DNA from: Enterobacter phage Tyrion
DNA length: 41,760 nucleotides
Sequence record: KX231829.1
Reading direction: 5' to 3' (one strand)
Part shown: piece by piece, positions 3,967 through 37,341 of the stretch
How positions within the stretch are numbered: the first letter of the stretch is position 1
Layout: the number at the start of each line of letters is the position of its first letter
Made by a program: the position numbers and the translations under genes
The notes under the pieces: model-generated
What the model saw: only the letters and a program-made list of their open reading frames with translations
What the model was told of the DNA's origin: nothing
Databases searched by the model: none

Positions 3967-4046
3967 CATTACCTCAAGGGTAATTATTGATGCAATAACT
4001 GTCAATACCCTACGCTAAATAATGCATATGTGGTTAAATTGGTAAT
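3967..4046. promoter_or_regulatory. Promoter-operator unit upstream of the 68-aa gene and portal
   Basis: Perfect palindrome ATTACC-TCAAG-GGTAAT (3967..3983), then CATATGTGGTT (4025..4035) and half-site GGTAAT (4041..4046). Same composite architecture as 7 other intergenic sites. Confidence 0.55.
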
Positions 4047-4073
4047 AATTTAATTGCGTACGGAGTCATTGTT

Positions 4074-4280
4074 ATGTGCATGGGTAGCTCTCCATCAGTG
4101 CCAGCGGCACCGGAAGTGCAGGCCGCACCGCAGGAACAGGATGCTGCTGTAGTCGATGCTCGCGACGAAGAAACCCGCCGCCGCCGCGCTGCTGCCGGTC
4201 GTAGTTCCACGCTTCTGACTGGCTCGCAGGGGGACACCTCCGCAGCCAATACCAGCGGCAAAACTCTGCTCGGTCAGTAA
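4074..4280 (+). CDS. Small low-complexity Ala/Arg-rich protein upstream of portal
   Basis: 68 aa. Its translation-initiation region ACGGAGTCATTGT(T/C)ATG is duplicated exactly at the portal start. Confidence 0.5.
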   Translation: MCMGSSPSVPAAPEVQAAPQEQDAAVVDARDEETRRRRAAAGRSSTLLTGSQGDTSAANTSGKTLLGQ

Positions 4281-4294
4281 ACGGAGTCATTGTC

Positions 4295-5965
4295 ATGGCG
4301 GAAACAACGAAAGAGCGGTTGAACAAACAGTTCGCACAGCTTGAAAGCGAGCGCCAGTCGTTCGAGCCACACTGGCGAGAGTTGAGTGATTACATCAATC
4401 CTCGTGGTTCCCGCTTCCTGACATCAGAGGCAAACCGTAACGACCGCCGAAACACGCGGATCATCGACTCAACCGGCACTATGGCGGCGCGTACTCTTGC
4501 CAGTGGCATGATGTCAGGCATCACCAGCCCTGCGCGTCCGTGGTTCCGCCTGGCGACACCTGATCCGGATATGATGGATTATGGCCCGGTCAAGTTGTGG
4601 CTGGAGACGGTACAGAACCGCATGAACGATATGTTCAACAAGTCGAATCTGTACCAGTCACTGCCTCAGCTTTACGGCAGTCTTGGCACATACAGCACCG
4701 GCGCAATGGCGGTACTGGATGACGAAGAAGACATTATCCGCACGATGCCTTTTCCGATCGGCAGTTACTACCTGGCTAACTCCCCGCGCGGAAGCGTTGA
4801 TACCTGTTTCCGTAAGTTCTCCATGACTGTGCGCCAGCTTGTGCAGGAATTTGGCCTGGACAACGTCAGCGAATCCGTGAAGGGCATGTGGGAAAGCGGC
4901 ACGTATGAGAAGTGGGTTGAAGTGATGCACTCGGTGTATCCGAACATCAACCGCGATACGGCGAAGCTGGACAGCAAGAACAAGCCGTATAAATCCGTTT
5001 ATTACGAGGTCGGCGGCGATAACGATAAGTTGCTGCGCGAATCCGGCTTCGATGAATTCCCGATCATGGCGCCACGCTGGGAAGTGAACGGTGAAGATGT
5101 CTATGGCTCATCGTGTCCTGGCATGCTGGCGCTTGGTCCGGTTAAAGCGCTGCAACTTCTCCAGAAACGCAAATCTCAGCTGATTGATAAAGCCACTAAT
5201 CCGCCGATGGTTGGGCCTACTTCTCTCAAGAATCAGCGCGTTTCACTCCTCCCTGGTGATATCACCTACATCGACCAGGTGACCGGTCAGGACGGTTTTA
5301 AACCCGCATACCTGGTAACTCCCAGCACTGGCGATTTAATAACCGACATTCAGGACACGCGCCAGACCATCAACAGCGCCTACTTCGTCGATCTGTTCAT
5401 GATGCTTCAGAACATCAATACCCGCTCAATGCCGGTGGAAGCGGTGATCGAGATGAAGGAAGAAAAGCTCCTGATGCTGGGGCCGGTACTGGAACGCCTG
5501 AACGACGAATGCCTGAACCCACTGATTGACCGTGCATTCTCGATGATGGTGCGTAAGAACATGCTGCCACCGCCGCCGGACGTGATGGAAGGTATGCCTC
5601 TGAAAGTGGAATACATCTCCGTCATGGCTCAGGCGCAGAAGTCTATCGGTCTGTCCAGTCTGGCATCAACTGTCAACTTCATCGGACAACTTGCGCAGGC
5701 CAAACCTGAAGCACTCGACAAGCTCAACGTTGACCAGGCGATCGACGCATTTGCTGATATGTCCGGCGTATCGCCGACTGTCATAGTGCCGCAGGACCAG
5801 GTTGAACAGACGCGTCAGGACCGTGCGCAGCAGCAACAGCAACAGCAGGCAATGGCAATGGCTCAGATGGCAGCGCAGGGAGCCAAGACTCTCAGTGAGA
5901 CGCAGATGAAAGATCCCAGCGCGCTCTCAGCAATGGCTCAGGCAGCAGGCAGGCAACAGCAATGA
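4295..5965 (+). CDS. Portal protein
   Basis: 556 aa, positioned after terL. Gln-rich C-terminus. Size matches epsilon15 gp4. Confidence 0.85.
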   Translation: MAETTKERLNKQFAQLESERQSFEPHWRELSDYINPRGSRFLTSEANRNDRRNTRIIDSTGTMAARTLASGMMSGITSPARPWFRLATPDPDMMDYGPVKLWLETVQNRMNDMFNKSNLYQSLPQLYGSLGTYSTGAMAVLDDEEDIIRTMPFPIGSYYLANSPRGSVDTCFRKFSMTVRQLVQEFGLDNVSESVKGMWESGTYEKWVEVMHSVYPNINRDTAKLDSKNKPYKSVYYEVGGDNDKLLRESGFDEFPIMAPRWEVNGEDVYGSSCPGMLALGPVKALQLLQKRKSQLIDKATNPPMVGPTSLKNQRVSLLPGDITYIDQVTGQDGFKPAYLVTPSTGDLITDIQDTRQTINSAYFVDLFMMLQNINTRSMPVEAVIEMKEEKLLMLGPVLERLNDECLNPLIDRAFSMMVRKNMLPPPPDVMEGMPLKVEYISVMAQAQKSIGLSSLASTVNFIGQLAQAKPEALDKLNVDQAIDAFADMSGVSPTVIVPQDQVEQTRQDRAQQQQQQQAMAMAQMAAQGAKTLSETQMKDPSALSAMAQAAGRQQQ

Positions 5966-6258
5966 CAGATTACGACGACGACAAACTGAAAGAAGAGAAC
6001 GCGCGTAAGCAGCGCGATCTGGCTCAACGTGAAATCGACGACATCCGTTTCGTCATGGACAGCAAGCAGGGCCGCCGCGTCGTCTGGTCAGTGCTGGAGA
6101 AAGGGCGTGTATTTTCCGCCATTCCTCCGATGGACGCGCTGGCAATGGCATTTAACGAAGGGCAGCGCAATCTGGCGCTGGAGTTGTTTCAGCGAGTAAT
6201 GACGCACTGCCCTGATCAGTATCTGAAGATGGCCGCAGAGGCCAGTGAACAGGAGTGA
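5962..6258 (+). CDS. Hypothetical head-assembly protein
   Basis: 98 aa, coupled (ATGA) to portal and scaffold. Confidence 0.55.
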   Translation: MTDYDDDKLKEENARKQRDLAQREIDDIRFVMDSKQGRRVVWSVLEKGRVFSAIPPMDALAMAFNEGQRNLALELFQRVMTHCPDQYLKMAAEASEQE

Positions 6259-6953
6259 ACATGAATTTATTTGAGCGTTTGCTGTATCGCCGCCTTTGCA
6301 ATGAGCAATCAGTTGATGGTGGCGCGGCACCTGCAGCATCAGAACCCTCACCCGCTGCTGGTGATAATCCGGCTCCTGCTGGCGATCCAGCGCCGAAAGA
6401 AGGCGACACGCCACAACCAGGCGCTGAAGGCGATAAGCCAGCAGAAGAAAAGCCAGCCGGCGATAAACCGGCTGAAAAGAAAGAAGACGAAAAACCAGAA
6501 GGCGCGCCGGAGAAGTACGAATTTAAGACTGCTGAAGATATCGAACTGGATACCGAAGCGCTGAAGGATTTCGAACCAGTGGCGCGTGAACTGAACCTGA
6601 CCAACGAACAGGCGCAGAAGCTGGTTGATGTCTATCCGAAGATCCTGGCTGGCGTGCAGCAGCGTCAGGCTGAAGCATGGCAACAGACCACTGAACAGTG
6701 GGCTGCAGATGTGAAGGCCGACAAAGAGATCGGCGGTGACAAACTGCCTTCAAATCTCAGCGCCGCGCAGCGTGCGCTTGATCAGTTCGGTACGCCGGAA
6801 CTCAAGACATATCTGAACGATACCGGGCTGGGGAATCACCCTGATCTGGTTAAGGCGTTCGTGAAAATCGGTAAGGCCATGTCTGAAGACGGCATGGTCA
6901 CCGGTAGTAATGATGGCCAGCGTAGTGCGGCCGAAGTGCTCTATGGCAAATAA
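6255..6953 (+). CDS. Scaffolding protein (Pro/Ala/Glu/Lys-rich N-term, helical C-term)
   Basis: 232 aa acidic low-complexity protein immediately upstream of the major capsid gene. Confidence 0.6.
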   Translation: MNMNLFERLLYRRLCNEQSVDGGAAPAASEPSPAAGDNPAPAGDPAPKEGDTPQPGAEGDKPAEEKPAGDKPAEKKEDEKPEGAPEKYEFKTAEDIELDTEALKDFEPVARELNLTNEQAQKLVDVYPKILAGVQQRQAEAWQQTTEQWAADVKADKEIGGDKLPSNLSAAQRALDQFGTPELKTYLNDTGLGNHPDLVKAFVKIGKAMSEDGMVTGSNDGQRSAAEVLYGK

Positions 6954-6967
6954 GAGAGGAAATAACC

Positions 6968-7954
6968 ATGGCTGTTAAAGGCTTAACTGCGCTGACGCTG
7001 GCAGACTGGGGTAAGCGCATCGACCCAAACGGGAAAGTCGATAAAATCATCGAACTTCTCGCACAAACAAACCCGATCCTTCAGGACATGCTGATTGTTG
7101 AAGGTAACCTGCCGACCGGACACAAAACAACTGTTCGTTCCGGTCTTCCGTCGGCAACCTGGCGTTTGCTGAACTACGGCGTGCAGCCAAGTAAATCGAC
7201 TACCGTCCAGGTTACTGACGCTGTCGGCATGCTGGAAACCTACGCTGAAATCGATAAATCTCTGGCTGATCTGAACGGCAATACTGCTGAATTCCGCCTG
7301 TCTGAAGACCGTGCATTTATCGAAGCGATGAATCAGCAGATGGCGCAGACGCTTTTTTATGGCGACTCCAGCGTAAATCCTCAGCAGTTTATGGGCCTTT
7401 CATCTCGCTATTCCAGTCTGTCTGCTGGCAACGCGCAGAACATTATCGATGCAGGCGGTACCGGTACAGATAACACCTCTATCTGGCTGGTTGTTTGGGG
7501 TGAAAATACTGTTCACGGCATTTTCCCGAAAGGCCAGAAAGCTGGTTTGCAGATGGAAGATAAAGGGCAGCAGACACTGAAAGATGCCGCTGGTGGTCAG
7601 TACGAAGGCTACCGTACCCATTACAAGTGGGATAACGGTCTTTCCCTTCGTGACTGGCGTTACGTTGTGCGCATTGCAAACATCGATGTCAGCAACCTGT
7701 CAGATCCTGCCACAGCGGCAAACATTGCGAAACTGATGGTGAAGGCACTGCATCGCATTCCTAACCGTGGCATGGGCCGCCCTGTTTTCTATATGAACCG
7801 CACTATTGGTCAGGCGCTCGATCTGCAGTCGCTGGAGAAAACCTCTCTGGCGATCAGCGTGAAAGAGACCGAAGGCGAATGGTGGACCTCTTTCCGTGGT
7901 GTACCGATCCGCGAAACTGACGCTCTTCTGGAAACTGAAGCGCGCGTGGTGTAA
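6968..7954 (+). CDS. Major capsid protein (HK97-fold)
   Basis: 328 aa with strong RBS GAGAGGAAATAACC-ATG. Position and size match epsilon15 gp7. Confidence 0.85.
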   Translation: MAVKGLTALTLADWGKRIDPNGKVDKIIELLAQTNPILQDMLIVEGNLPTGHKTTVRSGLPSATWRLLNYGVQPSKSTTVQVTDAVGMLETYAEIDKSLADLNGNTAEFRLSEDRAFIEAMNQQMAQTLFYGDSSVNPQQFMGLSSRYSSLSAGNAQNIIDAGGTGTDNTSIWLVVWGENTVHGIFPKGQKAGLQMEDKGQQTLKDAAGGQYEGYRTHYKWDNGLSLRDWRYVVRIANIDVSNLSDPATAANIAKLMVKALHRIPNRGMGRPVFYMNRTIGQALDLQSLEKTSLAISVKETEGEWWTSFRGVPIRETDALLETEARVV

Positions 7955-8005
7955 CGCCTGTTATTAACCTGTGGGCCTTAACTGGCCCATTAATGGAGAA
8001 AGAAG

Positions 8006-8443: not shown

Positions 8444-8453
8444 GGGGATATAG

Positions 8454-8789: not shown

Positions 8790-8805
8790 GCCTCGCGTAT
8801 CAGAC

Positions 8806-8830
8806 AAGGGGCTTCGGCCCCTTTATTGCA
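8806..8830 (+). terminator. Rho-independent terminator after capsid genes
   Basis: aaggggcttcggcccctttatt. Confidence 0.6.
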
Positions 8831-8833
8831 GGA

Positions 8834-20376: not shown

Positions 20377-20388
20377 GTGACATGTCAC
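20377..20388. repeat. Palindrome GTGACATGTCAC (copy 2)
   Basis: Perfect 12-bp palindrome between convergent genes, directly followed by the terminator hairpin ggccgctttcgcggcc. Confidence 0.8.
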
Positions 20389-20396
20389 AAAGGCCG

Positions 20397-20420
20397 CTTT
20401 CGCGGCCTTATTCTTATCAG
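20397..20420. terminator. Bidirectional Rho-independent terminator
   Basis: GGCCGC-tttc-GCGGCC followed by ttattctt on the plus strand. U-rich on the minus strand after the adjacent palindrome. Confidence 0.55.
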
Positions 20421-21130
20421 AACCCACCAGCCTGGCTGTTGATGTACTGCGCGTGCGTCTGGATGTCGCGCAGGCATTTACTGGCACCTACGATGTAGCT
20501 GATCATCGTGGTGAACTCCGCCGCCGCGCCGGATACGTCGTGGCCGTCGTCCTGCATCTGGTTCAGCAGGTTCATCAGCAGTGAGCGATCCGCCAGCCCA
20601 ACAACACCTTCCGGCGAGTGAATCATGTCGCGGTAGCCGGGTTTGAGTGGGGCGCTGTAGTTCTTCTGTTCAATCTGCATGGCCTGCATAACTGCTGATG
20701 CTGTGGCATTGGCAACCTGATCAGCAACCATCTTAATGCGGTCTTCTTGCGGGAGCGTATTTTTGATGTAACTACCGGTGCGGCGGATCTGCGGCAGCAC
20801 TTCGCCAGTTACCCATTTACGGAAACGGTAGGGAATAGTCCCAGGTGTTACTGCATCGCGGCAGCGCAGGATCAGAGTATAGAGGCCGGATTCGTTTATG
20901 ACATTAACGGTCTGACTACCTTTTACGGTGTAAGTTGAACTTACACCCTTCTCATCATCATCTAATGCTTTCAACGACATGCGGGAGTTAGTCAACCCAA
21001 GAGCTTTGCAAACGTCTGATGCAGCAAACCATGGATTACCATCAATGTTGAACATGCGAACAGGTGTGGATGATTCGAACTTAAATACTGCGTCTGGAGA
21101 TGGTTTTCTTTGAGTTGTCATAGTGATCAC
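20417..21130 (-). CDS. ant: Bro-N domain antirepressor-like protein (Ant)
   Basis: 237 aa. N-terminal Bro-N signature FNIDGNPWFAASDVCKALGL...LDDDEK. The C-terminal approximately 70 aa is paralogous to the product of 21439..21699. Confidence 0.75.
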   Translation of the reverse strand: MITMTTQRKPSPDAVFKFESSTPVRMFNIDGNPWFAASDVCKALGLTNSRMSLKALDDDEKGVSSTYTVKGSQTVNVINESGLYTLILRCRDAVTPGTIPYRFRKWVTGEVLPQIRRTGSYIKNTLPQEDRIKMVADQVANATASAVMQAMQIEQKNYSAPLKPGYRDMIHSPEGVVGLADRSLLMNLLNQMQDDGHDVSGAAAEFTTMISYIVGASKCLRDIQTHAQYINSQAGGF

Positions 21131-21392
21131 CTTTGTAGTTCCGGTTAATCACCACCGCTGAGACCAATCAGATGGTGGTGAACTGTGCAGAGTTGGTCTT
21201 ACCGGCTACAAAGGACCCGGCGCACCGTGAGGTGCCCCCACACAGCCCACCATAGAATATGGGTGCTATGCTTCACGCATAAAAAAACCGCTCGCGCGGT
21301 AATGCGCCTCTGTAGTAATCCGGGAGACCAATCCCGGCACTGGATTTTGCCAGTGCCTGATCACTATGGCACAAGAATTATGCATTGTAAAT

Positions 21393-21448
21393 TTACCTGT
21401 GAGGTAATAATAAACGGCTTCACAGGTAATTACAAACCTTATGTGGTT
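21393..21448. promoter_or_regulatory. Operator/promoter unit upstream of ant
   Basis: TTACC-TGTGA-GGTAAT (21393..21408), half-site AGGTAAT (21424..21430), ACCTTATGTGGTT (21436..21448). Confidence 0.5.
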
Positions 21449-21699
21449 TGCCGTCGTAGTTGCTCTACGCAATAATCCAGGTGCGTCTGCAGATCCTTCA
21501 TCGATAACTGTGAACTGGTGACATAGTTCACCAGCGCAGTCAGTTCTGCCAGCGGTCCATCAACGTTAAATCCGTCTTTGTCCAACTGGCGCAGCAATTT
21601 CATAAGGTGTGAGTCCTCCACCAGGGATATGACGCCTCCCGGCGTGTGTACTCTTTCAGCAAATCCATCTTCCAGCGGGTGGTGATACTGCCGTTGCAT
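21439..21699 (-). CDS. Small antirepressor-like protein (stand-alone Ant C-terminal domain paralog), SOS-box associated
   Basis: ORF 21439..21717 (TTG). Likely ATG at 21699 with RBS GGAG. Clear similarity to the Ant C-terminus (HTPGGVISLVEDSHLMKLL.. versus HSPEGVVGLADRSLLMNLL..). Confidence 0.6.
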   Translation of the reverse strand: MQRQYHHPLEDGFAERVHTPGGVISLVEDSHLMKLLRQLDKDGFNVDGPLAELTALVNYVTSSQLSMKDLQTHLDYCVEQLRRQTT

Positions 21700-21719
21700 C
21701 TCTTCATCTCCATGCAATC

Positions 21720-21739
21720 ACTGTATGCTTATACAGTAG
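21720..21739. promoter_or_regulatory. LexA (SOS) box aCTGTATGCTTATACAGta
   Basis: CTGT-N8-ACAG with AT-rich spacer, 18/20 match to TACTGTATATATATACAGTA. Lies about 20 bp upstream of the ATG of the small antirepressor-like gene. Confidence 0.65.
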
Positions 21740-21774: not shown

Positions 21775-21841
21775 ATTACCTTATCGGTAATAAATGTGTT
21801 GAATGTTATTTATTCGATACATATACGGTTATTCAGGTAAT
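21775..21841. promoter_or_regulatory. Operator/promoter unit between small ant-like gene and tailspike
   Basis: Perfect ATTACC-TTATC-GGTAAT (21775..21791), then GGTAATAAATGTGTT, ACATATACGGTT (21819..21830) and AGGTAAT (21835..21841). Confidence 0.55.
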
Positions 21842-21896
21842 AGAATGGATGGGACTGCATGCGCGATGGGCGCACAAGCTATCCGGAGATAATGAC

Positions 21897-24455
21897 ATGA
21901 CGGTCTCAACCGAAGTTGACCACAACGATTACACCGGGAACGGCGTCACAACGACATTCCCGTATACCTTCAGAATTTTTCAGAAGTCTGATCTGGTTGT
22001 TCAGGTTGTAGACCTGGATGAAAATATAAGCGTTCTGGTCCTTGATACGGACTACACAGTTACCGGTGCTGGTGGATACACTGGCGGCAATGTGATATTG
22101 GCTACGGCGCTTGCCAGTGGATACCAGATCTCCATTTCGCGCGAGTTACCTGTTACTCAGGAAACAGACCTTCGCAATCAGGGTAAGTTCTTCGCTGAAG
22201 TTCATGAAGACGCTTTCGATAAGCTGACTATGCTGATCCAGCAAGTAAGAAGTATGTTCAGCCTGGCGCTGCGCAAGCCTACATTCGTGGCAAATTATTA
22301 TGATGCTATGAACAACTATATTCGAAATCTGAGAGATCCTGTACGTCAGCAAGATGCAGCAACAAAAGGGTATGTTGACAGTTTGTCAGGAACAAATTTA
22401 AACAGAACCCTACGTGTTCCTGAAGCAGTAATATCTGTTTTGCCTGACATTGAAGATAGAAGAAATAAAGCGTTAAGTTTCGACTACGCCGGTGAGCCAT
22501 TGCTATTAGATCCATCAGGAAGTGGATTGTGGGGTTATGTTCTGATTGATTCATTTCAGTTAGGGGCAACAATATCCACTCGATACCAGGCATTGCGCTG
22601 GACTCTTCCGGATGGCGATGGTGAATACTATCGCTGGGATGGTGCACTTCCTAAAATCGTGCCACCTGGTTCCACTCCTGATACCGCAGGTGGCGTAGGC
22701 CCTGGTAAATGGGTTGGTGTTGGTGATGCGTCTTTACGCGGACAATTAAACAACACATTCGATGATGTCACATCATTAAGAAATTCAGAAAACCTTATCC
22801 CAGATATTCCAGTCTTGCTCGTTAATTACTATTCAGGTGTAGTTGGTGGAGGTGGGGCATTCTATGTTGATGACGCAGATACCACGTCAACAGATAACTC
22901 CGGCACTGTATTCGTAAACGCTAGCGGACAACGTATCAAGCGAGTTCTTGATGGCGTATGCCGCTGGTCAGACTTCGGAATTCTGCCAGGCATGCCGGTA
23001 GCGCCAACTAAATCGCAGTGTGAAGCAGTATGGGCGTGGGGTTTCGCAAACGGCTGTACCCGGTACGAAACCTTCCAGAAAGGGGAAATGACATTCACTT
23101 TCCCTCTGCTGTTCCAGGTGCCTGCTGACTGGACTGGCGGGGCGGTGAGCTTTATTGCTGAGGGTCTGCACAAATTCGCATACGATTTCCGTAATGGCGC
23201 CACTGATGATGTGGTAGAGATCATCCTGAAACTTGAAGACCTGTCAGGGAACACACCCATCCATACTATTTATAATTTCGATAACGTTGGGATGGGGCGG
23301 TTCCCTGGTAAGAGCATCCGATACACCGCTCTACGCCACACGAACGCAAAAAACTCAATGATCAAGGTTACCGGGAAGAACAACTACGGATATGCCCTGT
23401 TCATAGGCGGTAGTGATAACAGCATCGTGTACAATTCAACGTTTTATAACTGCGATGGACAATTGCTTGTAACGTCACCGGGAGGAGCTTACGACAACTT
23501 CGGTGATGCGATTTATGTTGGCGCTAAAAATGTGTCTATCCAGAGTCCTGTCATTGAAACAACACAGGGTGGTAGAGCTGGTATCGTATTCGAAGGGACA
23601 AGTGTTGATCGTGTTGGTGGTGAGGTAACAAACTGCTTCATTAAGGGATATGATCGCGGTATTCACATTGAAACCATTGGCTACAGAATGGACGCAGTTA
23701 ATATTACTGGAGGCAGGATACAGGATTGTAATACAAGCATATTGGCATTTAATGGAGTAGCCGCCGATATGGGAAGTGATATGTCTGTTATTGTCAAGGG
23801 ATTAACATCGCGGCTTGATAGCACAATTTCAGGTCATGCTAATCCAACAGGATTTACTCTTGGACACTTTATGGCTTCAGGAATAAACATGCAGATCACC
23901 ACTGAGGGTTGCTCATGGCAGGCGCAACTTAACAATATAACTATTGTTGGTGGTGGAAAATGGATTAGTAGCGGAGACAGGATGTTTGTTAATTCAGGAG
24001 GAATAGCAGCGCCATACGCAAGAAGTATAGAGATAAATAATATGTATGCCCCCGCAAACAGAAACACATTGTCATCATCAGGTAATGTTATATTCACAAA
24101 CTCATTTTGGGGTGGCGATATAGCGGTAACTGGCGGAAATAAGAGCGTGATAGATAATATAGAGATGACAAGACTCACATTCCCAAATTGCGGGAGAATT
24201 AGTCTTGTTGGATCCAATAGCGCCATTGTGAGAAACATAATATTCCAGTTCCCTGATACGTGGGCAATTGACAACACCCAAACTTTGCAGGTGCCTGTAT
24301 GTCCTATTATTGAAAATATCCATGTAAATAGCACGCCAACAGGAACGGCAACACTGCAGAGGAATGCAGAGAACACAGGTGCATCAGCAAACAGATACAG
24401 AAGGGCCATGCCATCATATATTTCAAATGGCACGACATTTACAACAATACCCTAA
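21897..24455 (+). CDS. Tailspike: T7 gp17-like N-terminal adaptor domain plus parallel beta-helix depolymerase-like domain
   Basis: ORF 21849..24455. Likely start MTVSTEV at 21897 with RBS GGAGATAA. N-term YTGNGVTTTFPYTFRIF..DLVVQVVDLD matches the T7 tail-fibre N-terminal domain pattern. The C-terminal two-thirds is AT-rich with beta-helix-like repeats. Confidence 0.85.
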   Translation: MTVSTEVDHNDYTGNGVTTTFPYTFRIFQKSDLVVQVVDLDENISVLVLDTDYTVTGAGGYTGGNVILATALASGYQISISRELPVTQETDLRNQGKFFAEVHEDAFDKLTMLIQQVRSMFSLALRKPTFVANYYDAMNNYIRNLRDPVRQQDAATKGYVDSLSGTNLNRTLRVPEAVISVLPDIEDRRNKALSFDYAGEPLLLDPSGSGLWGYVLIDSFQLGATISTRYQALRWTLPDGDGEYYRWDGALPKIVPPGSTPDTAGGVGPGKWVGVGDASLRGQLNNTFDDVTSLRNSENLIPDIPVLLVNYYSGVVGGGGAFYVDDADTTSTDNSGTVFVNASGQRIKRVLDGVCRWSDFGILPGMPVAPTKSQCEAVWAWGFANGCTRYETFQKGEMTFTFPLLFQVPADWTGGAVSFIAEGLHKFAYDFRNGATDDVVEIILKLEDLSGNTPIHTIYNFDNVGMGRFPGKSIRYTALRHTNAKNSMIKVTGKNNYGYALFIGGSDNSIVYNSTFYNCDGQLLVTSPGGAYDNFGDAIYVGAKNVSIQSPVIETTQGGRAGIVFEGTSVDRVGGEVTNCFIKGYDRGIHIETIGYRMDAVNITGGRIQDCNTSILAFNGVAADMGSDMSVIVKGLTSRLDSTISGHANPTGFTLGHFMASGINMQITTEGCSWQAQLNNITIVGGGKWISSGDRMFVNSGGIAAPYARSIEINNMYAPANRNTLSSSGNVIFTNSFWGGDIAVTGGNKSVIDNIEMTRLTFPNCGRISLVGSNSAIVRNIIFQFPDTWAIDNTQTLQVPVCPIIENIHVNSTPTGTATLQRNAENTGASANRYRRAMPSYISNGTTFTTIP

Positions 24456-26407: not shown

Positions 26408-26465
26408 TCACCTTATGGGTAATTTTGATAGGAGTAATCTCAGGTAATTATAACCATATATGGTT
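26408..26465. promoter_or_regulatory. Divergent promoter/operator region (oac leftward, lysis rightward)
   Basis: TCACC-TTATG-GGTAAT (26408..26423). Sigma70-like TTGATA (26425..26430) - 17 bp - TTATAA rightward. AGGTAAT (26442..26448), ACCATATATGGTT (26453..26465). On the minus strand CCATATATGGT is directly followed by a perfect TATAAT pointing toward oac. Confidence 0.55.
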
Positions 26466-26518
26466 TATTGTGTATGATGGACTCACCAACTAAGGGGGTT
26501 CGTTATGCACAGTAAACG

Positions 26519-26932
26519 GTGGTCATTATGTCAGCCGGGCTAACCAGTGAGTCTTTAAATCAGTGGCTTAGTATGGGTTCGCTCGCTGCGGTAATCGCAG
26601 GAGTTCCGCCAGAAGTGGCGCTCGGTGCTTTGGCTGGTGCGGTAATTTTTGTTACCTCGGCTGTCGAATACCCGATCCGCCGCCGGGTTCTTCTGTCGAT
26701 GCTCAGCTTTCTCTGCGGCCTTCTCTTCTACAAACCCACAGCATCCATCCTTATCGGCGTAGCCAGCCTGATCCCTACCATCACGCAGGATTCTTTCGAG
26801 AAAGGGATCGTATTCTCTGCCGGCGCATTCGTGTCAGCTATCGTCGCAGTTCGTATTGGCATCTGGCTCTATCACCGTTCCGATAATCCACGCGAGTTAA
26901 TCCCGGGGAGAAAAGACGATGACAACTCATGA
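26519..26932 (+). CDS. Holin-like membrane protein
   Basis: 137 aa, multiple TM segments, first gene of the lysis cassette. Confidence 0.5.
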   Translation: MVIMSAGLTSESLNQWLSMGSLAAVIAGVPPEVALGALAGAVIFVTSAVEYPIRRRVLLSMLSFLCGLLFYKPTASILIGVASLIPTITQDSFEKGIVFSAGAFVSAIVAVRIGIWLYHRSDNPRELIPGRKDDDNS

Positions 26933-30086: not shown

Positions 30087-30730
30087 GCTGCACGCTCCCG
30101 GCCCTGGTTGTCTGTTGGTGATAGCGGAGCATTTGAGAATGCCTGCGCCATTCCTGCAACATCCAGCGCATAACCTGGATGAAGTTGCACCGCCGGACCG
30201 TCGCACTGGTTTCCCCAAACGTCGAAACCATGCGACGACTGGCGAGCGAACAATTCTATGCGCGGCACATCGCCCAACAGTTGCACCAGTTTTTCCCTGA
30301 TGATGTCTGGTTTGCGTGAGTTCTCCATGCGCGGCGCCGTGACGTGCTGGCAGATTGACGCATCCATGCGGGACGGTAGTTTCCCACGCACCGCAAACAG
30401 GCAGTCTTCGCTGTTCGCCCTGGTAAGATGGCCCATGCCGATCGCGCTGTTCCCCTTATGCTTATTCGTTTTATGCCAGGTGAATCCCTTCATGGTCATC
30501 AGTCGGAAGCCCCACGCCTCTACAACCTTCAGCGCTTCAACCGGCTGAGTTGGAACCCACCACATCGCCAGCAGGCAATCATCTGAAGCGAGATCCCATA
30601 CAGGCAGGCGGCAGATATCCAGCACGTTCATCACCGGATATTTGAACCCGGCGCCGCGGTCGCCGTCTGCTGCCTTGTCGCGATATGACCAGGGAGGATC
30701 AGCGTAGATGAGTGTGTATTTATTTGGCAT
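30083..30730 (-). CDS. N6-adenine DNA methyltransferase (MT-A70/Dam-phage family, DPPW motif), orphan
   Basis: 215 aa. N-term YTLIYADPPWSY. No restriction-endonuclease partner nearby. Confidence 0.85.
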   Translation of the reverse strand: MPNKYTLIYADPPWSYRDKAADGDRGAGFKYPVMNVLDICRLPVWDLASDDCLLAMWWVPTQPVEALKVVEAWGFRLMTMKGFTWHKTNKHKGNSAIGMGHLTRANSEDCLFAVRGKLPSRMDASICQHVTAPRMENSRKPDIIREKLVQLLGDVPRIELFARQSSHGFDVWGNQCDGPAVQLHPGYALDVAGMAQAFSNAPLSPTDNQGRERAA

Positions 30731-30947
30731 TCCTCATCTCCTTAATCTTTTTTATGGACTTGCTAAAGTTGTTCTTTTTGAATTCGATAAAACCACCTTT
30801 AATCAATTTTTTTATCGCCAAATCAACAACGTTTTGAGAAATTCCCAAGTTTTTGGAAATTTGTGCAGATGTTTTGTTAGGATTTTTTTTAAGGAAATCA
30901 AAAATACATGCCTGAGTATCGGCCCCCGCAATTGTATGTTTTGTCAT
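30720..30947 (-). CDS. Small winged-helix regulator, PapI/FaeA-like (AT-rich)
   Basis: 75 aa. IFDFLKKNPNKTSAQISKNLGISQNVVDLAIKKLIKGGFIEF aligns with the 29880..30086 product. Lys-rich, low-GC codon usage. Confidence 0.55.
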   Translation of the reverse strand: MTKHTIAGADTQACIFDFLKKNPNKTSAQISKNLGISQNVVDLAIKKLIKGGFIEFKKNNFSKSIKKIKEMRNAK

Positions 30948-31119
30948 ATCACACCAGCCTTAATTGGACGAACCTTAAGCGATTCATTCAATTTCTCAGC
31001 AACTCGTTGTGCTGCTATGGGGTTGTTAATAATCAACTTTGCAGGAGTTAACCAGCCTCTGTGTTTAACAGAGTAAATAAGAGTTACCTTACCGACGGTG
31101 ATATTGTCGTGAGGATTAG
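30943..31119 (-). CDS. Hypothetical 58-aa protein (not in ORF track)
   Basis: Minus-strand ATG at 31119 overlapping the upstream stop (TATGACTAA). Its own stop overlaps the ATG of the 75-aa gene (ATGA), so it is translationally coupled in the operon. Confidence 0.4.
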
Positions 31120-31505
31120 TCATAGATCACCCCACGGCTGAGTATTCCACTGTAATCACCACAGCGCAGGCCATTACTTTTCGTGATGCACTGGTCACGA
31201 CGAACGGCGATCTTGTGCCGCTCAACTTCACCCTTCGCTGCATCCATACACAGGAGCCATAGACGAGCAGCAACGCGAAAGTGACCTTTTTTCTCTCTTG
31301 CGATAGCGCGCTTCTCGATCTCCATCGCCGCCGGTGTCACCGCGATTACTTTTGAGACTTCGCTTTTTGACACATGGTCAAGATGGTACTTCTGCAATTT
31401 CGTTAACTTTGGCTTATTCATTTGATCCAGCCTTCTCTGAAAATAACCGCCAGCAGGTAAAGCCAGGCGGAAATTGAGGTCAGGTATAAGTACCATCCTG
31501 ACCAC
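31116..31505 (-). CDS. Hypothetical protein (first gene of leftward methyltransferase operon)
   Basis: 129 aa ORF. An alternative start is MNKPK at 31421. Confidence 0.5.
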   Translation of the reverse strand: MVRMVLIPDLNFRLALPAGGYFQRRLDQMNKPKLTKLQKYHLDHVSKSEVSKVIAVTPAAMEIEKRAIAREKKGHFRVAARLWLLCMDAAKGEVERHKIAVRRDQCITKSNGLRCGDYSGILSRGVIYD

Positions 31506-31530
31506 TTATTCCAGTGCCTGATCAGCGCTG

Positions 31531-31779: not shown

Positions 31780-31828
31780 AAAAACCTCTCTTGGTTGCAG
31801 TGCGGCGCGCGTGGCGCCGCGGTGGTGG

Positions 31829-32797
31829 TTACATCGGTACTTCGTTTAATTCATCACGGCGGATGCTGTAAACGTCAGTGGCTTTTTCCAGACGCTCATC
31901 ATCATTCGCCAATTTTTTGGCAACGTATTTGTAGGCGTTGTCCAGGTCAGCAATGGTGTTGTAGTTCATCGCCGCACCGGTAAACGCTGCCAGGATTTCA
32001 TCAGGATCCCGGTCGTCTGCCTTTCTGGTTTGTTCTTCCTGCTTCTGCTCTGGCTTTGAATTGATCAGGCTGTTCACGCCTGATGCGGTCGATGCTGGCG
32101 GCGTAATGTCACGCTCTACGCGCGGTGTTGTCTCCTGCAATTCGTCAGGGGTGTAGACACCCATGATGACGTCAGGGCAATGCAGGCGTGACCAGCGCTT
32201 TGTCGCCAGGTATGCGAGTTGTTGTTTAGGATCACTGGCCCAAAGAGTGGAGTTTCTTACCTGTGCCTGTGACAGTAGCAATTCCAGGACACGTGGTTTA
32301 TCTTCACCCTTCATCGTGGCCCATACACGCACTCCACAACCTGCTTCATCTTTTAATGTCCATGCTGGAGCGATGTAGGTATTACCCTTCTGGGATGTTT
32401 TCTCTACAAACTTGCCGATCACGTTTTCCCACGGTCCGAACCACTCATAGTTGATACGGTCTTTCGTTGGCGACATCGTGGTGATCACCGCATTTACCAA
32501 CTGGGCCTCATAACCGAGAGTGCCGCTAACGACATGAGTTTTCTGCGCGACTGCGAATGGATTCATACCCCACTGAGCAGCCTGCATTGCCACAGCCATG
32601 CAATCAGCAGGCTTTCCGGCGAGGTGAGCCGGTACGGTCACGCGACTTTGAGACATGACCTCGGCAAACTTCATCAACTGGTTCAACCCTTCAGGGCTAA
32701 AAATGGTGGCAGCGGTGCCAGCTATGGCAGTGTCTACTGGTTGGTTAATGGTTGAGATTTCGTTGCTCATACGTACATATCCTGTTTGCGTGCCCAC
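31829..32797 (-). CDS. recT: RecT-family single-strand annealing recombinase
   Basis: 322 aa, adjacent to and overlapping the exonuclease gene. RecT-like core. Confidence 0.8.
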   Translation of the reverse strand: MGTQTGYVRMSNEISTINQPVDTAIAGTAATIFSPEGLNQLMKFAEVMSQSRVTVPAHLAGKPADCMAVAMQAAQWGMNPFAVAQKTHVVSGTLGYEAQLVNAVITTMSPTKDRINYEWFGPWENVIGKFVEKTSQKGNTYIAPAWTLKDEAGCGVRVWATMKGEDKPRVLELLLSQAQVRNSTLWASDPKQQLAYLATKRWSRLHCPDVIMGVYTPDELQETTPRVERDITPPASTASGVNSLINSKPEQKQEEQTRKADDRDPDEILAAFTGAAMNYNTIADLDNAYKYVAKKLANDDERLEKATDVYSIRRDELNEVPM

Positions 32798-33588: not shown

Positions 33589-33722
33589 TCTTCAACCTCG
33601 CTATCATCAGGTTCATCAACCGACTGATTGTTTATTGCTCCGCAAGATTCACATTCTGTGTGGGTCAGGCTTGACCAAGGTCCTTTCCAAAAAACCTGTC
33701 CGCCGCATGTTTGGCAAATCAT
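33588..33722 (-). CDS. 45-aa zinc-ribbon protein (not in ORF track)
   Basis: MICQTCGGQ...CESCG has two CxxC pairs. Its stop overlaps the exonuclease ATG. Confidence 0.4.
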
Positions 33723-34060
33723 GCTGCTGTCCTCGCGCTGTCAATTTTGTCCGCCATATCCATCCTGGCGATGACGCCAGTCAATTCACGTTTGAACGAC
33801 GACATCAGTTCTTCGTACTCGCAGCTTTCTTTTGCCGCTTCCAGAATTTCACGGCGAACGCCAGCACGAAGAAGCGAACGCTCGAACGTCTCATCCATGT
33901 CGGCGCCGCTGACTGCATCAATCAGTTCAACGTGGCGGTCGTACAGTTCTGATGACATCTGGTATTCGTTGCTGAACATGACCGCGATATTGTTCAGATT
34001 GTTAATCTGTTGTGTGTTCACTTGCTCACCCCCATATCCCGTTATCGTTGGCAACTTCAT
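33719..34060 (-). CDS. Hypothetical early protein (leftward operon)
   Basis: 113 aa, acidic, no recognised domain. Confidence 0.5.
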   Translation of the reverse strand: MKLPTITGYGGEQVNTQQINNLNNIAVMFSNEYQMSSELYDRHVELIDAVSGADMDETFERSLLRAGVRREILEAAKESCEYEELMSSFKRELTGVIARMDMADKIDSARTAA

Positions 34061-34176
34061 GGGCTACCTTGTTGGTAAACGCCCATTTGATGCCTTCCTG
34101 CAGCGTGCGAAACTTCCAGCTCATCAGCCCGCAAGCTGTAACGCAGTACCAACCGTTAATGATTTTCCACTGCATG

Positions 34177-34283
34177 ATTTATTACCTCGGTTTGTTACCG
34201 TTGAGGTAATAATTATCCATATATGGTTTGCAGTCAATAGATATGAGTGTAAAAAATTACCTGTGGGGTAATTGTCAGGTAAT
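34177..34283. promoter_or_regulatory. OL-like operator/promoter cluster
   Basis: TTACCTCGG..CCGTTGAGGTAAT, then GGTAAT-aattat-CCATATATGG (34205..34226). Perfect ATTACC-TGTGG-GGTAAT (34256..34272), AGGTAAT (34277..34283). Leftward sigma70-like TTGACT-17-AATTAT with CCATATATGG in the spacer. Confidence 0.55.
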
Positions 34284-34294
34284 CTTAAAGGCAA

Positions 34295-34317
34295 TAAAAA
34301 AGCCGCTCATTGGCGGC
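34295..34317 (-). terminator. Terminator after repressor gene
   Basis: GCCGC-tcattg-GCGGC. On the minus strand it is followed by UUUUUUAUU. Confidence 0.55.
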
Positions 34318-34339
34318 TTAGTTATTGATTATTTGAATA

Positions 34340-34924
34340 TTATTCTGTTGTTTTTTTATTCTGACTGATAACGAATTCTATGTAGCTTTCTATCTTCTTT
34401 TTTTCTACGTCAGGTAACAATCCGTAACTTGGTCGGTCATATCTGATAGCTTCCGGATCATGAGGATGAATCAGCAATTCATAACCATGTCGACCGAACG
34501 CGGAGGCGATAGATTCGAGAGTTGAGATTGATACACTGACTTCGTTGTTCAGCATTCTGCTGACAGTGTTCTGAGAAATTCCGCTGGCGCGCTCGATCTT
34601 ACCTTGTGATGTCAGGTTATCGCTTTCTCTCATCCAGCGTTCAAGGTTATGGGCAGCAATGATACCAATATCAGTTGGTCCTACAGGTACAAAGCTATCA
34701 AGAGTCAGAGATCTGTCTATGTCCAGCCAGTTACGCGGTTTGTTTGCTGCTGCCTCAATCTTACGTGCAACCTGATCACCGATTATTTTCTTTCCAAGAA
34801 CCCAACGATTAACCAGGTTAGCCTGCGTGTTCATCCTTTCTGCAAGACGCGTCTGCACGCCGTTAAATTCGCGGTCTATTAGATCCTTGAGATTTTGTCT
34901 GCGTACGTCCTGGATACTTTTCAT
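34340..34924 (-). CDS. Prophage repressor, tandem HTH_XRE domains, no S24 peptidase domain
   Basis: 194 aa with two HTH regions (about 1-65 and about 105-160). No Ser/Lys autocleavage module. Divergent from the cro-like gene. Confidence 0.75.
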   Translation of the reverse strand: MKSIQDVRRQNLKDLIDREFNGVQTRLAERMNTQANLVNRWVLGKKIIGDQVARKIEAAANKPRNWLDIDRSLTLDSFVPVGPTDIGIIAAHNLERWMRESDNLTSQGKIERASGISQNTVSRMLNNEVSVSISTLESIASAFGRHGYELLIHPHDPEAIRYDRPSYGLLPDVEKKKIESYIEFVISQNKKTTE

Positions 34925-34956
34925 GCTCTTGAAAATAAGCTCTTAAGTGAATGAGT

Positions 34957-35041
34957 AGGTAATTCAATTAAAAGCGATATTACCCCACAGGTAAATGCAC
35001 CCCACAGGTAACTGAACTTGATTTTTGTTACCTAATCGGTG
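34957..35041. promoter_or_regulatory. OR-like operator cluster (PRM/PR)
   Basis: AGGTAAT (34957), ATTACC-CCACA-GGTAA (34978..34993), GCACC-CCACA-GGTAA (34996..35010), TTACC-TAATC-GGTGA (35027..35041) overlapping a rightward TTGATT (35017..35022)-17-GAGTAT promoter. Confidence 0.6.
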
Positions 35042-35078
35042 AGTATTTATTATCTGACATAAATATCAGGCAATAGCT

Positions 35079-35309
35079 ATGAGCGAGAACACGCAATTCG
35101 ATTTCAAAAAGCACTGGCTTGCACTTACTCCGGATGAGCGTGAAGCCTTCGCAGAAGAGGCGGGAACGACCAGCCATTATATCCAGACGCACCTTACCAG
35201 CAAACGTAAAATGCCAGGTAAGACACTGATGAACGGGCTGTTTAGGGCTGCAAAATCCCGTCAGTGGGTACGCACAAAACCCGAACTGGCATACTTCTTC
35301 TACTCCTGA
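35079..35309 (+). CDS. Cro/CII-like small transcriptional regulator
   Basis: 76 aa, first rightward gene divergent from the repressor. HTH-like LTPDEREAFAEEAGTTSHYIQ. Confidence 0.5.
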   Translation: MSENTQFDFKKHWLALTPDEREAFAEEAGTTSHYIQTHLTSKRKMPGKTLMNGLFRAAKSRQWVRTKPELAYFFYS

Positions 35310-35373
35310 TTTCCCCTACCGATCCCCACAAGGCCGCCTTCTGGCGGTCTTTTCATATCTATTCGTACCCAAA

Positions 35374-35396
35374 AGGTAATTATTATCCATATATGG
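35374..35396. promoter_or_regulatory. Promoter/operator unit upstream of 35461 operon
   Basis: AGGTAAT-tat-TATCCATATATGGTT. The same 25-bp arrangement occurs at 26442 and 34205. Confidence 0.5.
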
Positions 35397-35460
35397 TTGA
35401 TCTTTTTTCTTCTCTGATTAAAAATTGTCGTAATCCCAACACTAATACTCAGGGTTAAGC

Positions 35461-35670
35461 ATGAAAATCATTACGCGTATGGATGCCGCAAAAAGCGGAC
35501 TGAAGCGTTATTACACTGGAAAACCATGTAAACACGGGCATGACAGTGAACGATGGGTATACAACGGTCATTGCGTCAAGTGCACGATGGAATCAAATCG
35601 GCGTATCAAGGCGGAAATAAAACGGATTATGGATGAGGCTTCCAGGGGCGATGCTATGGAGGTGATCTGA
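35461..35670 (+). CDS. Small Cys/His zinc-finger protein
   Basis: 69 aa with CKHGH...C..C. Confidence 0.5.
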   Translation: MKIITRMDAAKSGLKRYYTGKPCKHGHDSERWVYNGHCVKCTMESNRRIKAEIKRIMDEASRGDAMEVI

Positions 35671-36437
35671 TGGCTCGCATTCGAACGATAAAGCCGGAGT
35701 TCTGGACAGATGAAGACATGGCAGAACTATCAGAGCCAGCATGCCTTCTTGCTATTGGCCTTCTGAATTACGCCGATGATGAAGGATACTTCAATGCCAA
35801 CCCGAAACTGATAAAAGCTGCAGTTTTCCCAATCAGAGATCCGTCCGTTCCTATTCCGGTACTAATACGGGAGCTTTCCAACTGTGGTTATTTGTCCATG
35901 TTTTCAACCCAGGACGGCAAGCATTTTGGTGCAATAACAAATTTCCTTAAACATCAGGTAGTAAACAAGCCAAAGGAAAGCAAAATCAAATACTTACCTC
36001 TTATACCGTATGAGTACGGTACTGATACAGGATTAGTACCTGTAGGAATGGATCAGGGATCAGGGATCAGGGAAAGTAAAACCCCTCTCTCTGCGCGCGA
36101 AGAAATTCAAATTCCTCCTGTTGTTGTTCCAGGTATCGGAGAACCGATCGGCAAATTCACCATGCATGAAAACTGGCAACCATCTGAAGATTTTGTCATG
36201 CGCGCCAGAATGTGGGGCTATGCATTACCTGCTGACGGGTACAAGAAATCAGAACTGATTGAATTCATCACTTACTGGATGGCAGAAGGCAATGTGATGC
36301 AACACGTGCAGTGGGAACAGAAGTTTGCCAGGCTGCTGATGAACAGGAAAAAAAGAGCGGCAGGAAAGCGCGGTGACGACTCTGACGATGACGTACCGCA
36401 CTGGAACAGTCCAGAGGCGTGGGAGGATTTCTTGTGA
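35670..36437 (+). CDS. Replication initiation protein (lambda O-like role)
   Basis: 255 aa immediately upstream of, and overlapping, the P-like gene. N-terminal DNA-binding-like region. Confidence 0.6.
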   Translation: MARIRTIKPEFWTDEDMAELSEPACLLAIGLLNYADDEGYFNANPKLIKAAVFPIRDPSVPIPVLIRELSNCGYLSMFSTQDGKHFGAITNFLKHQVVNKPKESKIKYLPLIPYEYGTDTGLVPVGMDQGSGIRESKTPLSAREEIQIPPVVVPGIGEPIGKFTMHENWQPSEDFVMRARMWGYALPADGYKKSELIEFITYWMAEGNVMQHVQWEQKFARLLMNRKKRAAGKRGDDSDDDVPHWNSPEAWEDFL

Positions 36438-37219
36438 ACAACGTATTTAACGCAATCCAGAACAGAGACGGTGCAGCGCTTTCTCGCATGACCGGATCAG
36501 ACAGAGAGCACGAAGGGAATGACAACGTGGTGAACATCACCGCAGAGCGCCTTGTCGATGCCCTGTTTAAACAACTCAAACAGTTATTCCCGGCGGCAGA
36601 GCAAACAAACCTGAAAACGGCAGCGCAGGAAGTATCAGCAAAGCAGCAGTGGATCGCCGCATTCGCCGAAGGTGGTATCCGTACCCGTGAGCAGGTCTCT
36701 GCCGGAATGCGTCATGCCAGAGCCAGTGAATCACCGTTCTGGCCTTCACCTGGTCAATTCATCAAGTGGTGCAAAGACAGCAAGATGGTGCTTGGCGTCA
36801 GCATCGATGATGTGATGGGGGAGTTTCACCGGTACGCCAAAGAAAAAAGTCTCCAGCCTGGCGGACCTGAGAGATTCCCGTGGCGCCACCCGGTCATGTA
36901 CTGGATTGTGTGTGATACCCGGCGCGCTATGTACCAGCGGCAGCTGAGTGAGGCTGAAGTCGAGAAGCATGCGCGTAAGCTGCTTGATGAGTGGGCGCAG
37001 AAGGTTGCAGCAGGGCAGCAGATACCGGATCCAGTTCTCAGCATACAGGCGAAACCAGAGCCGATGAGTACGCCGCCCGATAGCTCAGGAAGCGCCTACC
37101 ACCCACCAGGGCGAAGTTTTGGCTGCATGCCTAACTCAGCGACACTTGGAGGGATCACTCCGGCGATGTGGCTTATGGAGGAATACAGGCGAGGTAAGGC
37201 GGCAGGACTCATCAAATAG
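36419..37219 (+). CDS. Lambda P-like replication protein (helicase loader)
   Basis: The central region aligns with lambda P: QQWIAAFAEGGIRTREQVSAGMRHARASESPFWPSPGQFIKWC versus lambda RRQWVLAFRENGITTMEQVNAGMRVARRQNRPFLPSPGQFVAWC. Confidence 0.8.
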   Translation: MGGFLVNNVFNAIQNRDGAALSRMTGSDREHEGNDNVVNITAERLVDALFKQLKQLFPAAEQTNLKTAAQEVSAKQQWIAAFAEGGIRTREQVSAGMRHARASESPFWPSPGQFIKWCKDSKMVLGVSIDDVMGEFHRYAKEKSLQPGGPERFPWRHPVMYWIVCDTRRAMYQRQLSEAEVEKHARKLLDEWAQKVAAGQQIPDPVLSIQAKPEPMSTPPDSSGSAYHPPGRSFGCMPNSATLGGITPAMWLMEEYRRGKAAGLIK

Positions 37220-37263
37220 CAAAGTAACACCGGCGCAGCAGCGCATTTTTTTACGCCCACACA

Positions 37264-37341
37264 ATTACCCAGTGGGTAATAAAATGTGTTCACAAGTATT
37301 GATTTCGAACCGTATATGGATTTTAATTACCTAAGAGGTAA
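37264..37341. promoter_or_regulatory. Promoter with flanking operators upstream of RuvC-like operon
   Basis: Perfect ATTACC-CAGTG-GGTAAT (37264..37280). TTGATT (37299..37304) - 17 bp spacer containing CCGTATATGG (37310..37319) - TTTAAT (37322..37327). Perfect TTACC-TAAGA-GGTAA (37327..37341) at the predicted start site. Confidence 0.6.

Follow-up and report, generated by a model that had tools for sequence, protein, structure and literature searches.

A conserved palindromic box coupled to repressor half-sites in predicted promoters of Enterobacter phage Tyrion and its relatives

The genome of Enterobacter phage Tyrion (KX231829.1; the whole 41,760-base stretch is henceforth the window) carries, at seven places in putative promoter regions, a short inverted repeat, here termed the box, that lies next to a half-site of the operator of the phage repressor Rep. 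The box recurs at orthologous positions in roughly 90-130 IMG/VR relatives per site and in eight complete phages. Its sequence features argue that it is a separate conserved element rather than a degenerate Rep operator, and a second sequence-specific regulator very probably binds there. A first-pass annotation of this DNA had already offered a second regulator site, set in a fixed composite with the repressor half-site, and this is still the best reading. As to how such a regulator might act, we offer a tentative proposal, namely that a phage protein made early in the lytic cycle turns late promoters on and damps early ones. The window is the complete genome of an epsilon15/phiV10-like temperate podophage of the genus Uetakevirus, with ~78-84% identity over shared parts to phiV10, epsilon15, SPN1S, BUCT554 and others; its gene order begins with the small terminase subunit at 54 and closes with a gp49-like regulator ending at 41758.

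Results

Copies and sequence of the box

Exact matches to CCRTATATGG are found at 26454, 34217 and 35387, all reading CCATATATGG, and at 37310 (CCGTATATGG); the first-pass annotation had given the same four places, with the first of them displaced by one nucleotide to 26453. These amount to 7 strand-matches as against 0.11 expected, a number that none of 100 shuffles reaches. The three degenerate copies it had listed are likewise present, at 4024 (GCATATGTGG), 21437 (CCTTATGTGG) and 21819 (ACATATACGG); however, tolerating two mismatches yields 19 matches in the window, so that these three are not significant by themselves. We therefore rely for them on a 14-column matrix trained on relatives only, from which the window copies were excluded and in which the site classes were equally weighted. 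When the window is scanned with it, the seven noted places, the degenerate ones included, take ranks 1-7 at 16.1-22.9 bits, with the next best locus at 11.4; seven loci of at least 16 bits stand against 0.175 expected and a maximum of 3 in 200 simulations. An unbiased repeat search independently of this returned a 25-nt composite family (D3) at 21424, 34204 and 35374. The identical arrangement of half-site and box that had been proposed for three places holds at 34204 and 35374, where 24 of the 25 bases match; it fails at 26443, where the linker measures 5 nt rather than 6 (GGTAAT-TATAA-CC).

The relatives comprised eight complete phage genomes and four IMG/VR scans that were anchored on flanking sequence and not on the box. 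The box-bearing phages have hosts in Escherichia, Salmonella, Klebsiella, Enterobacter and Citrobacter, and the conservation in related phages on which the first-pass annotation had staked its motif is thus present at orthologous sites. Logos from the relatives give the consensus A-W-C-C-A-T-A-T-R-T-G-G-T-T, i.e. A-W-CCATATATGG-TT, in which C2, T6, G9, G10, A(-1) and T11-T12 are near-invariant and the inner bases vary, with CCAAATCTGG, CCACATATGG, TCATATAAGG and CCGTTTGTGG all occurring. Accordingly, the box is an imperfect palindrome of 14 bp whose ends are fixed (AWCC-N6-GGTT), and the window's perfect CCATATATGG counts among its variants; the strict palindrome described earlier does not extend to the relatives, as the first three of these variants illustrate.

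Relation to the Rep operator

Rep (34340-34924, minus strand) consists, by Pfam, of an N-terminal helix-turn-helix (HTH) and a C-terminal HTH_3 tetramerisation domain, and matches the crystal structures of the SPC32H repressor (PDB 5D50/5D4Z) with E = 7e-44. Its N-terminal HTH is the predicted reader of TTACC-N5-GGTAA, and Rep is the predicted partner of the half-sites beside every box. This operator has 15 sites with at most one mismatch in the window versus 0.54 expected, three of them at PR/PRM and two at the terminase promoter, and the epsilon15 reference record annotates the same TTACC-N5-GGTAA sites as repressor-binding. A scan of the window found no box at either PR/PRM or the terminase promoter.

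The box resembles the Rep operator of the epsilon15/SPC32H type in being an inverted repeat with an ACC...GGT core, in occurring at the same promoters, and in having a half-site 6-7 nt away. However, its ends are AACC/GGTT, its spacing is N6, its centre is A/T-rich and partly conserved, and it can stand free of any operator, as at the lysis promoter of some relatives. Tested for membership as a Rep operator, it has neither the 5-bp centre nor a TTACC/GGTAA half-site. The fourth base of GGTAA in the operator is A in 93% of 113 distinct operators, whereas the box carries GGTT, with T at that base in 100% of the sequences at sites A, B2 and C (the sites are described below) and 74% at site D. Similarly, CC-N6-GG is kept throughout, at each of the seven window sites as well as in every relative, as opposed to the N5 of the operator. 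More than 250 distinct box sequences show no drift toward the operator, and these fixed differences, which never lean its way, argue for a reader other than Rep in its operator-binding mode.

At the same time, the two elements are closely coupled. From the 10-mer to the neighbouring GGTAA or TTACC there are 7 nt at six of the window sites and 6 nt at 26454, or 5-6 nt if the distance is taken to the heptamer AGGTAAT. The earlier claim of a half-site beside each copy therefore holds at all seven, that of an invariant AGGTAAT less so, as the heptamer at 4040 is TGGTAAT. The centre-to-centre distance between operator and box is 19.5 bp at sites D, E and F, while at PR and the terminase promoter one full operator is 18-27 bp from the next. 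At the lysis site, GGTAA is found at 6-7 nt in 11 of 27 unrelated upstream contexts, with one-mismatch versions in several others, and a full operator is found at 43.5 +/- 1 bp in 15 of the 27. In four, the 70 bp around the box contain no Rep site, and one close to the lysis-promoter box is likewise lacking in TL-2011b and ZX5. The recurrence of GGTAA in unrelated contexts indicates that the composite is under selection; the box can nonetheless stand alone.

Predicted late promoters: box with a -10 and no -35

Promoter elements were assigned from positions that are fixed while their neighbours vary. In three late promoters, the box is the sole conserved upstream element beside a good -10.

Box A (ATGCATATGTGGTT; 4022-4035, plus strand; position weight matrix (PWM) score 20.3) lies upstream of the head/portal operon. 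Its 10-mer is followed by TTAAATT and then by GGTAATAATTT, a block nearly invariant in 89 distinct relatives, with GGTAA at 4041-4045 and the -10 candidates within 4043-4051; the -10 is ambiguous between TAATAA, AATAAT and TAATTT. The promoter scan called no sigma-70-type promoter here and no -35 is recognisable. Close by, a perfectly conserved TTGACA (4000-4005, minus strand) stands 17 nt from TACCCT/TACCTT inside the operator at 3969-3983; it is probably part of a Rep-controlled leftward promoter for the accessory genes at 3859-2208, and the operator beside box A may in that case serve this leftward promoter rather than the head promoter.

Box B2 (ATACATATACGGTT; 21817-21830, plus strand; PWM score 16.1) lies upstream of the tail-fibre gene, with GGTAA at 21836-21840 and the -10, TAGAAT, at 21841-21846; in the promoter scan no -35 is recognisable. 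The linkers vary among 89 distinct relatives (7 variable nt after the 10-mer), with the box, GGTAAT and TA[GCA]AAT constant. The tail-fibre gene probably starts at the ATG at 21897, which has GGAG 9 nt upstream and lies downstream of the presumed transcription start, rather than at the mechanical start of its open reading frame (ORF) near 21849.

Box C (AACCATATATGGTT; 26452-26465, plus strand) is the first conserved element of the lysis-cassette promoter. Its 10-mer is followed by TTTATTGTG, the -10 TATGAT (26473-26478), the Shine-Dalgarno sequence AAGGGGG and the ATG at 26505, which is a more likely start of the first lysis-cassette gene than the GTG at 26519; the presumed transcription start lies ~7 nt past the -10. 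In relatives this -10 is TAT[GCAT]AT, the fourth position alone varying, and the promoter scan again shows no recognisable -35 on the plus strand. Conservation starts exactly at the box in 76 distinct relatives, upstream of which lie the 27 unrelated contexts (oac, gtr and other cargo). This boundary argues that the box is part of the rightward lysis promoter and not of oac. The first-pass annotation had noted that the copy abuts a perfect TATAAT pointing at oac; that hexamer is indeed there (26447-26452, minus strand), common only to the window and phiV10, and it is the assignment of the box to oac that does not stand. On the minus strand, a candidate oac promoter would have its -35 (TACACA, 26474-26469) 16 nt from this -10 (26452-26447), with the box inside the spacer. 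The oac -35 overlaps the lysis -10 at 26469-26478, an overlap that phiV10 shares, and the two promoters, facing each other, would on this layout be mutually exclusive.

Other predicted promoters: box against a -35 or within the spacer

At two independent promoters, those of sites E and B1, the box abuts the -35. Box E (ATCCATATATGGTT; 35385-35398, plus strand) lies past the terminator of the cro-like gene, at the promoter of the gp40/replication operon. An operator (35365-35379) is followed after 6 nt by the 10-mer and directly by the -35 TTGATC (35397-35402), which begins with the last TT of the box. The -10 is AAAAAT (35420-35425), or [C/G/A]AAAAT in relatives, across a spacer of 16-17 nt whose sequence varies while both hexamers are kept. 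Box B1 (AACCACATAAGGTT; 21435-21448, minus strand; PWM score 18.3) overlaps the stop codon of a gp19/Ant-like ORF, and its conservation may in part be coding, as it covers the last codons of this ORF. In minus-strand order the 10-mer is followed, after 1 nt, by the -35 TTGTAA (21435-21430), 17 nt, the -10 TATTAT (21412-21407) and an operator (21393-21407), a layout shared by phiV10 and ZX5. The predicted B1 promoter would serve a module of an isrK-like RNA, a C4-like RNA and a Bro-N ORF.

Two further boxes sit inside 17-bp spacers, as the first-pass annotation had correctly noted for the PL-like and RuvC-operon promoters (TTGACT-17-AATTAT and TTGATT-17-TTTAAT, with the box at the same spacer position). 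Box D (ATCCATATATGGTT; 34215-34228, minus strand) lies in PL, between the -35 TTGACT (34237-34232) and the -10 AATTAT (34214-34209), with operators at 34195-34209 and 34257-34271, the second of these 19 nt upstream of the -35. Box F (AACCGTATATGGAT; 37308-37321, plus strand) lies in the RuvC-operon promoter, between TTGATT (37299-37304) and TTTAAT (37322-37327), with operators at 37265-37279 and 37327-37341; in relatives its right half (T-TGG-WT) alone is well kept. Both spacers share the order 5 nt, 10-mer, 2 nt. The PL spacer of epsilon15-type phages (GATCAAAAAGTGATTGT; epsilon15 ~32520-32550 and also IMG/VR relatives) has a Dam site and no box. Its hexamer TTGATC/GATCAA recurs beside box E and may be a separate element.

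Taken across the promoters, the gap from box to -10 is 2 nt (PL, RuvC operon), 9 nt (lysis), 12 nt (tail fibre) or 22-23 nt (replication operon), placing the centre of the box at about -19.5, -26.5, -29.5 or -40. This variable distance rules out the box as a core element of a single promoter class, the third option of the first-pass annotation, and an extended -10 reading of the TGG fails as the TG is out of register at every site.

Neighbouring elements

Around site B1, two RNAs have Rfam matches on the minus strand, in the stretch that separates the gp19/Ant-like ORF from the Bro-N ORF (20417-21130): a C4-type antisense RNA at 21171-21257 (73 bits) and an Hfq-binding, isrK-like RNA at 21281-21356 (80 bits). 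By analogy, these RNAs point to a module like the immI of P1/P7 that would control an antirepressor. A LexA box, CTGTATGCTTATACAG, at 21721-21736 upstream of the gp19/Ant-like ORF (21439-21717, minus strand), is conserved in all aligned relatives, and its position would fit SOS control of an antirepressor, as is reportedly the case in SPC32H.

The operator also takes part in a second composite, TGCAT-N7-TTACC-N5-GGTAAT-WATT (repeat family D1), at 55-86, 3957-3988 and 21381-21412, where a TTGCAT-like hexamer always stands at the same distance from it; the arrangement is possibly a further type of promoter/operator layout. In the leftward accessory region past the terminase genes, an Rfam match to the int-alpA RNA (2605-2669, minus strand) scores 44 bits against a gathering score of 35.8. 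The Rfam scan placed no RNA family on the boxes themselves.

A third conserved palindrome, GTGACATGTCAC, occurs at 2702-2713, after the terminator of the large terminase gene; at 20377-20388, 1 nt before a bidirectional terminator (20390-20409); and across the window junction, where 41755-41760 joins 1-6, so that the window is cut inside the palindrome. The junction copy holds the stop codon of the gp49-like regulator gene. All three positions recur in epsilon15, SPN1S, PAT1 and ZX5, and in Uetakeviruses, ZF40, N15 and a Yersinia phage a gp49-family gene is followed by GTGAC-N2-GTCAC. We consider GTGACATGTCAC to be probably the gp49-like regulator's own site; it is similar to the matS (GTGACRNYGTCAC) and SlmA sites.

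Discussion

A proposed second regulator at early and late promoters

Our favoured reading, held tentatively, is that the second regulator is likely a dimeric early-lytic phage protein, distinct from the DNA-binding domain of Rep, which activates late promoters and lowers the activity of early ones. Where the -10 is conserved and the -35 missing, as at the promoters of the head, tail-fibre and lysis genes, the bound regulator would replace -35 recognition and so activate transcription. At the promoters of the replication operon and the antirepressor module, a moderate -35 directly follows the box, which is centred at ~-40, and the regulator would there be placed like a class II activator. Within the PL, RuvC-operon and oac spacers (centre ~-19.5), the same protein would hinder RNA polymerase, such that its build-up might damp early and lysogenic-conversion transcription and bring about early shut-off. 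Through the neighbouring GGTAA, Rep would be able to occlude the box in a lysogen or compete with the regulator for it, with one composite providing both immunity and timing.

The lysis site lends this proposal some of its appeal. The holin/endolysin promoter must be silent in lysogens even where no Rep site is near, which a dependence on an activator would explain. oac is a lysogenic-conversion gene by the phiV10 annotation; were the candidate oac promoter the one active in lysogens, an unoccupied box would be expected there, and binding of the regulator would shut oac down while the lysis genes come on.

Several points weigh against this proposal. The spacing from box to -10 is 9 nt at the lysis promoter, 12 at the tail fibre and an ambiguous 9-12 at the head operon; such variability would be surprising in an activator standing in for the -35 and natural in a repressor that has only to overlap RNA polymerase. 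The tight coupling to Rep half-sites, which the favoured reading leaves secondary, fits a Rep-linked function at least as well, and the PL of epsilon15-type phages works without a box. A second candidate oac promoter, found in the promoter scan, weakens the argument from oac, and all promoter assignments rest on patterns of conservation.

Alternative readings

In the main rival, rather unlikely but able to explain the coupling and the variable geometry, the box is a second class of low-affinity Rep site: the remaining N-terminal domains of a Rep tetramer would bind AACC-N6-GGTT beside an operator or a GGTAA half-site, and thereby extend repression over core promoters whose full operator sits at ~-70, as at the lysis and tail-fibre genes. 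According to work cited in PMC9638917, the SPC32H Rep binds DNA as a tetramer with trans-paired N-terminal domains. The half-sites of the box share ACC/GGT with the operator, the accompanying GGTAA/TTACC recurs in unrelated contexts, the 19.5-bp centre distance at D, E and F resembles that between neighbouring operators, the distances of 40.5-43.5 and 52.5 bp are close to whole helical turns, and a variable position relative to the -10 would suit simple occlusion. Nevertheless, this rival has to contend with the T for A at the fourth base and N6 for N5, which are fixed in the more than 250 distinct box sequences, and with the box that stands alone at the lysis promoter of some relatives. The C-terminal HTH_3 is disfavoured as the reader: its recognition helix has SQN here and GPA in SPC32H-type phages, with the same box in both. 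Finally, Rep on the box would occupy the candidate oac spacer, though oac is expected to be on in lysogens.

In a reading that is less likely still, the Cro-like HTH protein (35079-35309, plus strand) would have the box as its operator and be a pure lytic-phase repressor or modulator at all seven promoters. This protein is encoded by the sole gene on the PR transcript ahead of the terminator, directly after which lies box E; it is confined to this genus and Psychrobacter phage pOW20-A, a search for more distant relatives having returned only enterobacterial prophages of the same genus. The box is missing at PR/PRM, where Cro would use the main operators, and every box position overlaps the RNA polymerase footprint. 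However, in pOW20-A a Cro homologue (40%) and a counterpart of the N-terminal domain of Rep (38%) are accompanied by operators of the form ATACC-N5-GGTAT and by no clear box. This suggests that the Cro-like family reads the main operator, as the Cro-like protein that the first-pass annotation had suggested as binder probably does too. Moreover, repression of late promoters by Cro would be counter-productive and would leave them without a driving element.

Very improbable, in our estimate, is a site for a host bending or nucleoid protein of the IHF, Fis or CRP kind, or a flexible element of CA/TA/TG steps aiding the wrapping of DNA by Rep or RNA polymerase, which would account for the retention of the box in phages of five host genera and for a core of flexible pyrimidine-purine steps with varying centre and fixed ends, but not readily for the invariant A-1, T11, T12 and CC/GG, which argue for base-specific reading, nor for the constant distance of 6-7 nt that ties it to a half-site of a phage repressor. 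The IHF-like element of the first-pass annotation can be set aside: WATCAANNNNTTR has 42 matches with at most one mismatch in the window against 35.5 expected, and none overlaps a box. To our knowledge, the consensus sequences of CRP, FNR, DnaA, NrdR and MqsA resemble the box partially at most.

Candidate binders

Candidates for the favoured second regulator are Cro with a second specificity, a PerC-like protein (31116-31505) and the first two small proteins of the PL operon (34026-34175 and 33719-34021); outside that reading, the N-terminal domain of Rep in a second mode or a host protein may bind the box. Several other proteins fare worse. The gp49-like regulator (41405-41758, phrog_536) is disfavoured by its 70% identical homologue in Pectobacterium phage ZF40, whose intergenic DNA has no box, and by the different palindrome, GTGAC-N2-GTCAC, that comes after its gene in four groups of phages. 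The zinc-ribbon protein gp40 (35461-35670), the zinc-finger binder proposed in the first-pass annotation, is unlikely as it has no annotated counterpart in TL-2011b or ZX5, both of which bear boxes; it is a type of module that also occurs in HNH endonucleases from numerous lytic phages. An AlpA-like excisionase would need two specificities, there being no box near attP. A 75-aa winged-helix (MarR-like) ORF of the early-left operon (30720-30947, minus strand) has no counterpart at that position in the annotations of relatives, phiV10, epsilon15 and SPN1S among them.

Comparison with known systems

The late promoters of phage P1 reportedly offer a parallel: according to Lehnherr and co-workers (1991-92), they combine a -10 with a short inverted repeat near -22 that replaces the -35, and are activated by Lpa. 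Sites A, B2 and C likewise join a conserved -10, without a -35, to a short palindrome centred at ~-26 to -30; here, the distance to the -10 is 9 nt (lysis) and 12 nt (tail fibre) and ambiguous at the head promoter, and the box also occurs in spacers and upstream of real -35s, which sets it apart. No Lpa-like match was seen among the proteins scanned, which covered part of the ORFs and involved no comparison with an Lpa sequence. The p4 protein of phi29 is a dual switch regulator that activates the late promoter and represses early ones from far-upstream sites by bending DNA. The box is comparable as one type of site at early and late promoters whose positions predict opposite effects; it differs in lying within the core promoter and in being coupled to repressor half-sites. 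Class II activator sites, such as those of CRP and FNR at -41.5 and of lambda CI at OR2, are matched in position by boxes E and B1, which abut the -35 with a predicted centre at ~-40; their sequences are unrelated, and the other copies of the box are positioned elsewhere. The CArG box CC(A/T)6GG of eukaryotic MADS/SRF proteins has the same letters as the 10-mer, a coincidence across domains of life, with no MADS protein here. Of 88 full-text literature matches to CCATATATGG, the 25 listed are all eukaryotic, vector-related or from animal viruses, and none of these concerns phages.

The epsilon15 reference annotation gives repressor, IHF, RNase III and integrase sites, with the box not among them. 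A search of the literature, outside which key subscription papers lie, found no description of the box; the ZX5 paper holds no operator data, and nothing was found in the searchable literature on late-gene timing in epsilon15/phiV10/SPC32H-type phages.

Implications for the phage group

What appears to be new here is a regulator box in phage promoters and, with it, a possible route to the late-gene control of this group, whose members find use as reporter phages and provide a structural model of the repressor-antirepressor switch. A more sweeping, and on balance improbable, generalisation would be that every lytic promoter of the genus except PR is written in a two-part code, in which a Rep half-site 6-7 nt from a box of the second regulator sets immunity and timing together: -35 replacement at late promoters, class II activation at those for replication and the antirepressor, a spacer block at early and conversion promoters, and a lysis-oac toggle around a single box. 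Short of this, the box marks seven predicted promoter regions, three late ones among them; it thereby predicts where late transcription would start and may be used as bait for the regulator that reads it. The overlap of the oac and lysis promoters around one box would in itself amount to a simple switch, by which the conversion gene goes off as the lysis genes come on.

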